From Candidatus Borrarchaeum weybense (GTDB lineage Archaea; Asgardarchaeota; Sifarchaeia; Borrarchaeales; Borrarchaeaceae), in contig JAHQJS010000007.1 of NCBI GenBank assembly GCA_019057385.1, forward strand, positions 320,001-384,000: 64,000 bases of DNA, read 5' to 3'. The stretch's first letter is position 1; every line of letters starts with the position of its first letter. Of the stretch, positions 21,785 to 24,782 are shown piece after piece. The notes under the pieces are model-generated. The model searched no databases. It saw only the letters and a list, made by a program, of their open reading frames with translations, and was not told the DNA's origin. Position numbers and translations under genes: made by a program.

Positions 21785-22888
21785 ATGAGAGAATTTATAG
21801 ACGAAAAAAAATATTTTTCTGATGTAGAAGGCCCATATTCGTTGAATGATAATGCCCTTGAAGTTGCAAGTTTGCTCATACGACCACATGGGCATGAACT
21901 CTTCAAGCAACTGAGTATATATGATGATTATCTTGTTGATTTAGAAAAAAAACCAAATTATAATTCAGGATGTACACTAGGACTTCTGTTACCTTTTTTT
22001 AAAGTATTTGGGGCAACAAACAACCTGTTGGAGTCAATTTCTTCAAAAAATGTTAATTTAATGACGGGGACAAGGAGTACTTTACAATTTCTAAGAGAAA
22101 AAATGGAATGCTACTTGATAAGTACCAGCTATGAACAGCATATCCATGCATTCTGTAAGGCTACGGATTTTCCTTTCGAAAATACAGTATGCACTAAATT
22201 AGACTTAGATAACGAAAAATTTAAACTTAATGGAAGGGAAAGTGACTGGCTTAAGAAACGGGCAGAAGAAATAGTATCGCTCCCTAAAATTAAGATTCCT
22301 ATAAATACTAAGAGTCGTGATGAGTTACCTGAGGATGTTTTAAGTTCCATTGAAAGATTAGACCAGATTTTCCTTGAAATGGAAAATGAATATTCGACTT
22401 CCTTTGAACTATTAAAAAGCGTAAATACTATTGGTGGATCGAAAAAGGAACAGGCATTACTCGAAAGAGCATCAGATGTTAGTAAAACTGTATACACAGG
22501 TGACAGTATTACAGACAGAGAAGCTCTTGGTCGAGTTAGAAAGGAAGGCGGATTGGCCGTTTCTGTAAATGGAGATATGTATGCAGTGAAAGAAGCTGAA
22601 ATAGGATGTATTATAGATAATACAATTTTAACATCTATTGTAGTAGATGCATTTTTTAACTCTGGGAAAGAAGGATTGCAAGATCTTGTTCATAATTGGA
22701 GTTATCATGGATTAAAAAAGGCAAAGGAAGATTTTCTAGTTACTCCAGAACTTATTAACCAGCTGATTAGTTTGTATCCGAAAAAACTTCCAGAAGTAGT
22801 CATTCTGACAGATGAGAACAAAGAAGAATTTGCAAAAAGAAGTTCTAATTTTGGAAAAAAATTGAGGGAAGGAAAGGCTCATGGATAA
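21785..22888 (+). CDS. HAD-like hydrolase, COG4030 / EhaR-like family
   Basis: 'SDVEGPYSLNDNALE', 'ISTSYEQH', 'GGSKK', 'YTGDSITD', 'VSVNG..YAV'. Confidence 0.75.
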   Translation: MREFIDEKKYFSDVEGPYSLNDNALEVASLLIRPHGHELFKQLSIYDDYLVDLEKKPNYNSGCTLGLLLPFFKVFGATNNLLESISSKNVNLMTGTRSTLQFLREKMECYLISTSYEQHIHAFCKATDFPFENTVCTKLDLDNEKFKLNGRESDWLKKRAEEIVSLPKIKIPINTKSRDELPEDVLSSIERLDQIFLEMENEYSTSFELLKSVNTIGGSKKEQALLERASDVSKTVYTGDSITDREALGRVRKEGGLAVSVNGDMYAVKEAEIGCIIDNTILTSIVVDAFFNSGKEGLQDLVHNWSYHGLKKAKEDFLVTPELINQLISLYPKKLPEVVILTDENKEEFAKRSSNFGKKLREGKAHG

Positions 22889-23840
22889 AAATAAAATAGA
22901 TTCTACTTATTGTGAGGCTTTTTATGGTTTGTATGTGAGAGTATTGGTTACTGCTGAGCGAGGGATTTATCCAGGAGATAGAATAGATCCGTATATAGAA
23001 AACGATGAACTGAGGTTTGCTGCTTACAGATCTACTTCAACACCAGCGACGGTAGTAGGTAGAACAGAAGCCGGAATTGAAGCTTGGGTACCGAAAACAC
23101 AGACTCCAGATGGCCGTGAGGGTGCCATTCTGCAATTTTGGATCATGTTAAATGAAAACAAACCATTAGAAAGTCAGATTGAAAAACTTTATCGCGAGTT
23201 TTCAATCCCAGTTCGCCAAGACATTCTTTCTTGCTATACAACGAGTTTATATGATTGGTTAAAACCTAGTGAAGGGATTGAAATTGTTGGAACAATAGAT
23301 ACAAGAAGATACATTGGTGATTGTGGGGGAGGCTATGAACGAGTTAATACTAAAACAATCGAAGTTCCTTTAATGGGAGGCCAAGATTTTTTTGTTGATA
23401 AGAAACTAAATGTAGGAAAGGGAGTATCGGGAGCAAACCTGTGGTTCTTCTGTGATTCAGTACTTTCTGGCAGAAAGGCTGGACGTGAAGCGGTAAAAGC
23501 CATCAGCGATGTTGAAGGTGTTATTACATCGTTCTATACTTGTCCATCTGGTTCAATGGTTGCAAACTACAAAGAGATTGGTCCGCCTACTAACTACAGA
23601 TTCTCTCCTACGTTGAAGAACGAAATTAAAGATTCTTTAGTTCCTGAAGGAATTGGAGCAATTCCAGAAATTGTAATCGATGGTATTTCAGTACAAGCTG
23701 TCCGGAATGCCATGAAAGTAGGTATTGAAAGCGTTGTTGACATGGAGGGTGTAAAAAGAATTTCTGCAGGGAATTATCAAGGGAAACTTGGACAAGTTAA
23801 ACTTGAACTAAGAGAAATAGTGCCAAATTTGTTTGAATAA
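22881..23840 (+). CDS. Formylmethanofuran:tetrahydromethanopterin formyltransferase-like protein (divergent Ftr paralog, EhaS-like)
   Basis: 'EAGIE', 'TPDGREG', 'GVSGAN', 'SGS', 'TN...PTL', 'VPEG...EIVIDG', 'ISAGNYQGKLG'. Confidence 0.85.
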   Translation: MDKNKIDSTYCEAFYGLYVRVLVTAERGIYPGDRIDPYIENDELRFAAYRSTSTPATVVGRTEAGIEAWVPKTQTPDGREGAILQFWIMLNENKPLESQIEKLYREFSIPVRQDILSCYTTSLYDWLKPSEGIEIVGTIDTRRYIGDCGGGYERVNTKTIEVPLMGGQDFFVDKKLNVGKGVSGANLWFFCDSVLSGRKAGREAVKAISDVEGVITSFYTCPSGSMVANYKEIGPPTNYRFSPTLKNEIKDSLVPEGIGAIPEIVIDGISVQAVRNAMKVGIESVVDMEGVKRISAGNYQGKLGQVKLELREIVPNLFE

Positions 23841-23849
23841 GTGGTTTTG

Positions 23850-24782
23850 ATGAGTTTTAGCGTTGTTGGATTCGCGGCAATCAATGAAGACAGGATAAGA
23901 TATGTTGATTATGAGGTAAAAGAGTCTGAAGTTTTATCTCGTGAATCTCCAGGAGAGTTGGAAAATGATGAAAAAGCTTTTCTTGGTGGTTCAGTAGTGA
24001 ATACACTTGTCGGTTTAGCAAAATTTGGATTTTCAGTAGCGGCTCTTGGAAAACTTGGAAACGATGAAACTGGAAATAGAGGCGAAAACAAATTAAAAAA
24101 CTACGGGATTGAATTCTTTGGCACCAGAGATTTACAATTCAATTCAAGTGTTGCTAGAATAGAAGTCGGTAGTAATAAACAAAGGAAAATAACAATTTAT
24201 CCGGGTTCTAATGATAGAATTGAGTGGGATGATGTAAATCTATACTTAGATTTAATAAGGAGTTCAAATCTCTTTCACTCATCTACGTTCGCTTGTGCGT
24301 ATAGCATGTCTTCATTAAAAACCCAGATCAAACTTGCTGAAGAATCAAATAAAATGAGTCTTAGTTTCGGTATGCTTTATTGTGATCTTTTCGAAAAGGA
24401 ACCATTATTAATAAAAAATCTATTGAAAGCTACTGATATTTTGATACTAAATGAAGAAGAAATTGAAAGGCTTGCAAACGAGAACTATGAAGAAGCAGCA
24501 AGGAGTTTGATTAGAAAATTCAAAATAGAAGTGATTGCGGTTACGTTAGGTGATAAAGGTTCGTATGTTGTTGGGAGAACAGAAGAACATTTCATTGAAT
24601 CTAGACCAGTAAACGTTATAGATACTACTGGTGCAGGTGATGCTTATTCTGCAGGATTTTTAGCTGCTTATTTGCGAGGAAAAAAATTAAGTATCTGCGG
24701 AATGTGGGGGAACAGAAACGCTGAAAGCTGTATAGGGACAAAAGGCGCAGTTGATTATCAAAAACCTGAAAAATTGAGTTAA
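23850..24782 (+). CDS. PfkB/ribokinase-family carbohydrate or nucleoside kinase (EhaT-like)
   Basis: 'GGSVVNT', 'GKLGND..G', 'LNEEE', 'VTLGDKG', 'DTTGAGDAYSAGF'. Confidence 0.9.
   Translation: MSFSVVGFAAINEDRIRYVDYEVKESEVLSRESPGELENDEKAFLGGSVVNTLVGLAKFGFSVAALGKLGNDETGNRGENKLKNYGIEFFGTRDLQFNSSVARIEVGSNKQRKITIYPGSNDRIEWDDVNLYLDLIRSSNLFHSSTFACAYSMSSLKTQIKLAEESNKMSLSFGMLYCDLFEKEPLLIKNLLKATDILILNEEEIERLANENYEEAARSLIRKFKIEVIAVTLGDKGSYVVGRTEEHFIESRPVNVIDTTGAGDAYSAGFLAAYLRGKKLSICGMWGNRNAESCIGTKGAVDYQKPEKLS

Follow-up and report, generated by a model that had tools for sequence, protein, structure and literature searches.

Candidatus Borrarchaeum weybense is an Asgard archaeon with a purine gene cluster in which the third step of the pathway has no recognised enzyme. 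The cluster lies in a window of 64,000 nucleotides, which is the whole stretch of DNA analysed here (contig JAHQJS010000007.1 of assembly GCA_019057385.1, positions 320,001-384,000); positions below are those of this window. Between the genes for steps 2 and 4 there are three others. They encode a HAD-fold protein (open reading frame 3, or ORF3, of a family called HADl here), a paralog of the formyltransferase Ftr called Ftr2, and a PfkB-family kinase. Ftr2 is probably the enzyme of step 3, in which glycinamide ribonucleotide (GAR) is formylated to formylglycinamide ribonucleotide (FGAR), both in this archaeon and in many others without PurN and PurT. The claim becomes more probable still if a version that runs through ribosides, described below, is counted with it. 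The support for Ftr2 at this step comes entirely from comparative genomics.

In the proposed reaction, Ftr2 would move a formyl group from the one-carbon (C1) carriers of the methanogen type to the amine of the glycinamide, which gives FGAR for PurL. The most natural donor would be N5-formyl-tetrahydromethanopterin (formyl-H4MPT), because the H2N-CH2- group of GAR would then replace the aminomethyl group of methanofuran (MFR). Formyl-methanofuran would be the alternative. The mechanism is expected to be that of Ftr, where the amine attacks the formyl carbon, and residue E263 would stabilise the tetrahedral intermediate. Donor, acceptor and every catalytic step of this route are inferred. What can be observed directly is the gene order, the protein families, the hole in the pathway, the separate clade of Ftr2, its linkage to pur genes and its phyletic complementarity with PurN and PurT.

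The gap has been reported for purine-prototrophic archaea since at least 2011. GAR formyltransferase was then noted as missing in Archaeoglobi, Methanobacteriales and M. kandleri (Brown et al. 2011, PMC3261824), and ANME-1 was added later (PMC9012536). In M. stadtmanae, C8 of the purine ring comes from C2 of acetate (PMC3261824), which points to a carrier-bound C1 unit.

Parts of the possible answer are also in print. EhaS and EhaT were first annotated as Ftr and ribokinase, and have no assigned role (Kaster et al. 2011, PMC3087415). An uncharacterised Ftr2 clade was described from ANME-1, ANME-2a/b, Archaeoglobales, M. kandleri and M. marburgensis (Chadwick et al. 2022, PMC9012536). A separate section of the same paper notes that ANME-1, Archaeoglobales and Methanobacteriales lack PurN and PurT. 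The paper does not connect the two, and a literature search found no paper that links the Ftr2 clade to the missing GAR formyltransferase. The preliminary description of this DNA, made from the letters alone, had named both the EhaR/EhaS/EhaT trio and the existence of prototrophs without PurN and PurT. Both points are found in published work (PMC3087415, PMC3261824, PMC9012536), and the name EhaR is found in databases.

The ehaA-T operon of Methanothermobacter ends with the genes for EhaR, EhaS and EhaT. They belong to the same families as the trio in the window, and have the same HAD-Ftr-kinase order. Unlike them, the trio in the window has purD and purL as its neighbours, and is not the tail of an eha hydrogenase operon.

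The purine cluster and the gap at step 3

The purine cluster has two divergent arms, with genes called from the open reading frame listing and from Pfam and NCBIfam scans. The arm on the plus strand follows the order of the pathway. It starts with purF (amidophosphoribosyltransferase, step 1; 18838-20325; TIGR01134, 372.9 bits against a cut-off of 350) and purD (GAR synthetase, step 2; 20349-21734; TIGR00877, 443 bits against a cut-off of 288). Next is ORF3, an EhaR-family HAD-fold protein of 367 amino acids (21785-22888), which was identified from family motifs, a structure model and the names of its relatives. It is followed by Ftr2 (22881-23840; Pfam FTR and FTR_C) and the PfkB-family kinase, which starts at GTG 23841 or ATG 23850 and ends at 24782 (PF00294, 157.7 bits).

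The arm then continues with step 4, formylglycinamidine ribonucleotide (FGAM) synthetase. This is encoded by a purS-purL fusion (24795-27818; a weak PurS, FGAR-AT linker, AIRS and AIRS_C domains; TIGR01736, 469.6 bits) and by purQ for the glutaminase subunit (27820-28623; Pfam GATase_5, 262.8 bits). Last comes purM, the aminoimidazole ribonucleotide (AIR) synthetase of step 5 (28926-30134; Pfam AIRS and AIRS_C; TIGR00878, 168 bits, under the cut-off). This pathway-ordered operon was already laid out in the preliminary description, and the reading frames and family scans confirm it. Absent from that gene list was the divergent upstream arm on the minus strand, with purE (AIR carboxylase/mutase, step 6; 18040-18531; PF00731, 143.7 bits) and purC (SAICAR synthetase, step 7; 17007-18053; PF01259, 84.5 bits). 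In a related genome, L018, purC keeps the same position.

The close coupling claimed earlier for the three genes can be read directly from the letters. Ftr2 starts at ATG 22881, upstream of the ORF3 stop codon (TAA, 22886-22888), which makes for an overlap of 8 nucleotides. From the Ftr2 stop codon (TAA, 23838-23840) it is 0 to 9 nucleotides to the start of the kinase, depending on which of the two starts is used. The kinase ends with TAA at 24780-24782, and 12 nucleotides later purL begins with ATG 24795. A promoter and terminator scan of the operon gave the same counts as shuffled sequences, with a model of bacterial type that does not apply to archaea.

The genome measures 4.18 Mb and consists of 8 contigs; judged by markers it is 100% complete, and its contamination is 7%. 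There is no match anywhere in it to the PurN-type domain PF00551 (Formyl_trans_N). PurT is missing as well, its best match reaching 45 bits where the cut-off is 502. The absence of both genes, which had been stated for the window, extends to the whole genome. The preliminary description had also named purH, purP and a canonical ftr as genes to look for outside the window; PurP, a PurH2-type protein and a canonical Ftr (Ftr1) are all present.

By tblastn, purD, purL and purM are each single-copy in the genome. Steps 1, 2, 4, 5, 6 and 7 are encoded within the cluster. Elsewhere in the genome, two PurP genes account for step 9 and a PurH2-type MGS/IMP-cyclohydrolase protein for step 10. Among the steps checked, which did not include a search for purB, step 3 is the sole one without a gene.

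The supply of formyl groups can be judged in the same way. Ftr1 adjoins Mch in the genome, and two FwdA genes are present. Formate-tetrahydrofolate ligase was not found in the genome, and a FolD-like match is only marginal. With Ftr1, Mch and FwdA there, this archaeon makes formyl-methanofuran and formyl-H4MPT, and a route via 10-formyl-tetrahydrofolate is not evident.

An RRXRR/HNH endonuclease gene lies between the two PurP paralogs, and hisF and hisIE come after the pair (G000:C6:780439-785888, L128). PurP is thus found beside histidine genes, whose pathway releases aminoimidazole carboxamide ribonucleotide (AICAR).

The Ftr2 family, its gene context and its distribution

Ftr2 has both Pfam domains of its family over the cut-off, with 79.8 bits for FTR (PF01913) and 155.7 bits for FTR_C (PF02741). 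It shares them with Ftr (EC 2.3.1.101; PDB 1FTR/2FHJ, 1M5H, 1M5S) and with bacterial FhcD (6S6Y). These solved proteins are also its best sequence matches in the PDB, at E values of 1e-30 to 1e-35. Ftr2 scores under both NCBIfam cut-offs for Ftr, however, with 167.7 bits against 292.6 for TIGR03119 and 240.6 against 297 for NF002554. Unlike Ftr, it shows linkage to pur genes and goes with PurD instead of with the C1 pathway, and identity to Ftr1 is about 31% (30.6% for the Ftr1 of its own genome).

In trees of about 80 to 100 family members, Ftr2 and Ftr1 fall into separate clades, with support of 99-100 in the SH-like approximate likelihood-ratio test (SH-aLRT). Ftr2 does not, therefore, group with canonical Ftr; such a grouping was among the results that the preliminary description had named as counting against its proposal. 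The best 120 database matches are all closer to Ftr2 than to Ftr1. Judged from its sequence, Ftr2 is an old paralog in a clade apart from the Ftr1 of the same genome. The characterised Ftr enzymes are of the Ftr1 type (PMC9012536).

The catalytic glutamate is kept, as had been read from the motif EIVI[DN]G. Its equivalent is E263 in 'PEIVIDG', which is invariant in 36 Ftr2 sequences and aligns with the E of 'YEIVING' in the solved enzymes (Glu245 in M. kandleri Ftr, Glu252 in FhcD). In Ftr and FhcD this conserved glutamate stabilises the tetrahedral intermediate (PMC6926001). The difference noted earlier in the 'TPFPGG' region is real too: in the Ftr2 alignment, this Ftr1 motif has become 'TPFxxCPSGS'. 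Residues specific to the clade include Q85, W87, R112, C148, W188, C221 and G234-P235.

Searching genome contigs with Ftr2 as the query returned two close relatives and three canonical Ftr/FhcD genes only. A third, weak FTR_C match in the genome is spurious, since it falls in a Sec23/24-like protein (G000:C4:168292-169965, L129). That protein has trunk and beta-sandwich domains, and is a eukaryote-like signature of the kind expected in Asgard archaea.

The order of the operon is not a matter of chance, since it recurs in two related Asgard metagenome-assembled genomes (MAGs; L018 and L019) at 72-94% protein identity, and in dozens of metagenome contigs at 30-47%. The first of these MAGs, from Candidatus Borrarchaeum yapensis, has the same operon, with an Ftr2 of 94% identity. 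Other lineages have other arrangements. Atabeyarchaeia have purS-purQ-purL-purF-purD-Ftr2, and an Altiarchaeota MAG has PGK-Ftr2-purSL-purQ. On a metagenome contig of 527 kb (L017), HADl-Ftr2 adjoins purD and purF. In three lineages far from one another, the place of Ftr2 is precisely between purD and purL.

A set of 80 metagenome loci has Ftr2 and HADl proteins that group with those labelled Bathyarchaeia by NCBI. These mostly read purF-purD-HADl-Ftr2-PfkB, and then a reversed purQ-purL-purM. Where a metagenome locus extends at least 3 kb on each side, pur genes are found in 20 out of 23 cases. Among informative loci, 45 of 58 have HADl upstream of Ftr2 and 48 of 61 have PfkB downstream. The Asgard families f3, f19 and f25 have HADl-PfkB within the pur cluster (purD-HADl-PfkB-purE), with Ftr2 elsewhere. 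In Halobacteriota the trio can adjoin as HADl-PfkB-Ftr2, away from pur genes.

Taken across lineages, these contexts link each gene of the trio to pur genes independently of the other two, and also link the three to one another. Recurrent linkage to pur genes, one of the checks suggested in the preliminary description, is seen in Borrarchaeum-type genomes, Atabeyarchaeia, Altiarchaeota, Bathyarchaeia-type contigs and others.

These clusters also vary in their other genes. PurL carries PurS at its N terminus, in a fusion protein of about 1000 amino acids, both in the window (24795-27818) and in Altiarchaeota (L014, 8970-11942), and in Atabeyarchaeia purS stays a separate gene. One Atabeyarchaeia pur cluster ends with Ftr2 and has a gene for an M20-family peptidase/deacylase directly 3' of it (L012, 9051-10322, plus strand).

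Ftr2 and Ftr1 can be told apart with a profile of the Ftr2 clade, which gives at least 380 bits for Ftr2 and at most 278 bits for Ftr1. The Asgard sample consists of 201 genomes that are at least 80% complete. PurD is found in 130 of these, PurN in 109, PurT in 3 and Ftr2 in 39. Ftr2 goes with PurD: it is present in 36 of the 130 genomes that have PurD, versus 3 of the 71 that do not, and Ftr1 is common among the groups without PurD. There are 70 Asgard genomes with none of PurN, PurT and Ftr2, and 62 of them also lack PurD, which suggests that many are auxotrophs. Where PurD is present and PurN and PurT are not (24 genomes), 16 carry Ftr2 and 8 do not.

The Halobacteriota sample has 151 genomes, 150 of them with PurD. 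Ftr2 is the only one of the three proteins in 60 genomes, PurN in 71 and PurT in 10. Combinations are rare, with PurN plus PurT in 2 genomes, Ftr2 plus PurN in 4 and Ftr2 plus PurT in 0. None of the three is found in 4 genomes, of which 3 have HADl. This means that Ftr2 is present in 60 of the 64 genomes without PurN and PurT, versus 4 of the 87 that have either. In Halobacteriota, Ftr2 is nearly mutually exclusive with PurN and PurT, which is a strong pattern among kin that are not independent of each other. The anti-correlation that the preliminary description had proposed to look for is strong once it is conditioned on PurD.

PurN uses 10-formyl-tetrahydrofolate and PurT uses formate and ATP. 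The proposed product of Ftr2, FGAR, is the same as theirs, as is its place in the pathway. There is no relation in sequence or fold, and the C1 donor proposed for Ftr2 is different, being a formyl group bound to H4MPT or MFR. Ftr2 is a candidate analogue of PurN and PurT, not a member of their families.

Some of the data weigh against Ftr2 as the step-3 enzyme. The complementarity follows lineage, and the 10 genomes with PurT only have near-identical scores and may be one clade. Since kin are not independent, Fisher P values overstate the case. In the Loki-type Asgard family f10, 20 of the 24 genomes with a gene of the Ftr2 clade also have PurN. The f10 copies form their own subclade in the tree, stand alone and are not linked to pur genes. 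Outside f10, all 15 of the 15 Asgard carriers of Ftr2 lack both PurN and PurT, but this partition, and so the setting apart of the f10 subclade, is post hoc. Ftr2 and PurN are also found together in four Halobacteriota genomes, Methanoliparum among them. Ftr2 loci that stand alone, away from any pur neighbours, are found in Methanoliparum, Aenigmatarchaeota and others.

The eight Asgard genomes with PurD and none of PurN, PurT and Ftr2 also count against it (G080, G084, G195 (family f21), G002, G007, G088, G105 and G118). For these, another solution or assembly gaps must exist. Finally, a PurP paralog could fill step 3 instead.

Two observations touch on these exceptions. G195 is a single-contig genome, and in these eight genomes step 3 may have yet another solution. 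In f10, one lone gene of the Ftr2 subclade (L106, G189:C28) adjoins a gene for a protein of 307 amino acids without a Pfam family.

The HAD protein, the kinase and competing explanations

ORF3 itself has no Pfam or NCBIfam match over threshold. The idea that it is not a HAD protein for this reason is rejected by the family alignment and by the fold. Its relatives match Pfam HAD domains and are named 'HAD hydrolase family protein' by NCBI and 'energy-converting hydrogenase A subunit R' by JGI. An alignment of 26 HADl members keeps the four HAD motifs, which are D14-x-E16-G-P, (I/V)-S-T115-S116-Y, K222 and G-D241-S-I-T-D245. Motif 1 has a Glu at the Asp+2 position (E16). A C-terminal tail, FRKxVRGExIGxLG, is also kept.

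The AlphaFold model of ORF3 (predicted local distance difference test score, pLDDT, 93.3) has a Rossmann-like fold with a cap, and matches HAD structures. The best solved match is AF1437 (PDB 1Y8A), with a Foldseek E value of 6e-18, template modelling (TM) scores of 0.73/0.85 and a family profile E value of 2e-59. AF1437 is a structural genomics protein of the same HAD subfamily, from A. fulgidus, which as a member of the Archaeoglobi is in one of the groups without a GAR formyltransferase. It is 23% identical to ORF3 and lacks part of the C-terminal region, and it yields a fold and no activity. The next structural matches are HADs of the phosphoserine phosphatase type. ORF3 is a probable phosphatase or phosphotransferase.

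The kinase scores under the ribokinase equivalog cut-off (TIGR02152, 106.6 against 299.65 bits). Its nearest solved proteins are adenosine kinase 3UBO and the M. jannaschii nucleoside kinase MJ0406 (2C49). It has the ribose-binding and catalytic motifs in common with these PfkB nucleoside kinases, but E values are only 1e-16 to 1e-18, and the operon is one of de novo synthesis, not of salvage. The ribose-binding N-x-D, the GG, the NxxE and the DTTGAGD motif are all kept in 57 orthologs. With the kinase as a tblastn query, it is the sole PfkB match in the genome at E < 1e-5.

The HAD protein and the kinase are functionally coupled to one another as well as to Ftr2 and purine synthesis. Their target would most likely be the 5'-phosphate in a ribotide/riboside pair. 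A complex prediction for the HAD protein with Ftr2 scored 0.00, which carries no weight either way.

One such pair of reactions would make the trio obligate. The HAD protein would turn GAR into glycinamide riboside, Ftr2 would formylate this riboside, and the kinase would then produce FGAR, with one ATP pulling the transfer from a weak donor. There is precedent for PfkB kinases that act on the riboside of a purine intermediate, such as the Salmonella aminoimidazole riboside kinase. The intact HAD catalytic motifs fit this scheme, as does a kinase that keeps N-x-D, NxxE and DTTGAGD and is nearer to nucleoside kinases than to ribokinase. So do the two different orders in which the trio is found adjacent, with translational coupling, and the joint occurrence of Ftr2 and HADl. 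HADl occurs in the same families as Ftr2, and in Halobacteriota 59 genomes have both and 80 have neither, versus 5 with Ftr2 only and 7 with HADl only.

The partners can be separated, however. Three Atabeyarchaeia genomes, of which two are closed, have Ftr2 immediately after purD, and neither HADl nor a clear ortholog of the kinase was found in them. Altiarchaeota have Ftr2 in a pur cluster with neither partner adjoining. Conversely, four Halobacteriota genomes have an adjacent HADl-PfkB pair and PurN, without Ftr2, and f10 keeps purD-HEAT-HADl together in the presence of PurN. Since Ftr2 and HADl-PfkB occur apart, a model of obligate dephosphorylation, formylation and rephosphorylation is weakened. 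By a rough energy estimate, direct formyl transfer to GAR is also about neutral, so coupling to ATP is not obviously needed. An obligate route through ribosides is on balance rather unlikely.

Should it be true, it would be a third and mechanistically new solution to step 3, driven by ATP, dependent on H4MPT and running via free ribosides. Such a route would also account for the place of ehaRST in the eha operon of Methanobacteriales. The reduced ferredoxin with which Eha replenishes the methanogenic cycle serves the synthesis of formyl-methanofuran, and EhaRST would be a point at which formyl groups leave for purine synthesis.

The separations suggest that Ftr2 is able to function without its two partners, and that the HAD protein and the kinase together have a separate role linked to purines. 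Because the pair is separable from Ftr2, it is regarded here as an accessory couple. For the preliminary description, which had proposed the whole trio as the step-3 system, this means that the formyltransferase part finds comparative support, and that the trio is not an obligate unit. Of the computational checks it had suggested, most speak for it.

The HEAT-repeat protein of f10 is a small one, encoded between purD and the EhaR-like HAD gene (L120, G198:C10, 8041-11180).

A different explanation is that Ftr2 is unrelated to step 3. It might be a second formyltransferase between C1 carriers or have a role with Eha, and step 3 would be done by, for example, a PurP-type ATP-grasp enzyme with formate. 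Linkage to pur genes would then reflect shared C1 or ribose metabolism only. The genome does have two PurP paralogs, and duplicated PurP-like genes without a known role are common in archaea (PMC3261824). The Methanothermobacter trio is co-transcribed with eha hydrogenase genes (PMC3087415). The many Ftr2 loci without pur linkage and the eight Asgard genomes listed above agree with this explanation as well. In three of the loci without pur linkage (L029, L051 and L055), the open reading frame listing, which is all that was used, makes no long co-directional hydrogenase-like cluster evident.

Against this, Ftr2 follows PurD and not Ftr1. Groups that have Ftr1 and no PurD have no Ftr2, as in genus g12 of family f12 (PurD in 0 of 10) and in family f15 (PurD in 0 of 4). 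Among Halobacteriota, Ftr2 is found in 0 of the 12 genomes with PurT, as opposed to the 60 of 64 without PurN and PurT. Its precise position between purD and purL in the three lineages named above also counts against an unrelated function. The trios of Bathyarchaeia-type contigs and of Asgard archaea are, moreover, in purine clusters and not beside hydrogenase genes. It is improbable that Ftr2 has nothing to do with step 3.

That Ftr2 formylates a neighbouring substrate, either glycine (with PurD then ligating N-formylglycine to phosphoribosylamine) or AICAR at step 9, is very improbable: glycine does have an H2N-CH2- amine and HADl and Ftr2 are linked most tightly to purD, but the PurD of the window is far over its equivalog cut-off with no sign of an altered substrate, PurP and the PurH2-type domain already provide steps 9 and 10 so that action on AICAR is not needed, and no result here points specifically to either substrate.

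Neighbouring genes and wider meaning

The purine cluster is bordered by two further genes. On the divergent arm, a gene for a metallo-beta-lactamase-fold protein (16361-17023, minus strand) overlaps the end of purC, and is found in the same place in L018 at 93% identity. On the other side, 3' of purM, lies a class-V aminotransferase (30254-31441, plus strand), which is 88% identical in the related MAG L019. Its best NCBIfam similarities are to pyridoxamine-pyruvate and aspartate-glyoxylate transaminases, all below cut-off. It might supply glycine to PurD.

Further along, the window has a small GTPase of the Ras/Arf type (33796-34344, minus strand), which is a eukaryote-like signature protein expected in an Asgard genome. 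It also has a RadA/Rad51 gene flanked by two TFIIB paralogs (39183-42858, plus strand). Public sequencing runs that contain this DNA are metagenomes from sediment, seawater, soil and marsh, with no RNA run listed.

New in this analysis are the Asgard case, the counts conditioned on PurD in two phyla, the link to AF1437 (PDB 1Y8A), and the separability of Ftr2 from the HAD-kinase pair.

If Ftr2 is indeed the enzyme of step 3, a third and non-homologous type of GAR formyltransferase exists. The 'hydrogenase subunits' EhaR, EhaS and EhaT, as well as thousands of 'Ftr' annotations, would then need new names. Metabolic models that force free formate into step 3 would be corrected. It would also mean that in a large part of the Archaea, purine C8 is drawn directly from the methanopterin/methanofuran C1 pool. 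The groups concerned would include the Asgard relatives of eukaryotes, Bathyarchaeia, Archaeoglobi, ANME-1 and the methanogens of rumen and gut.

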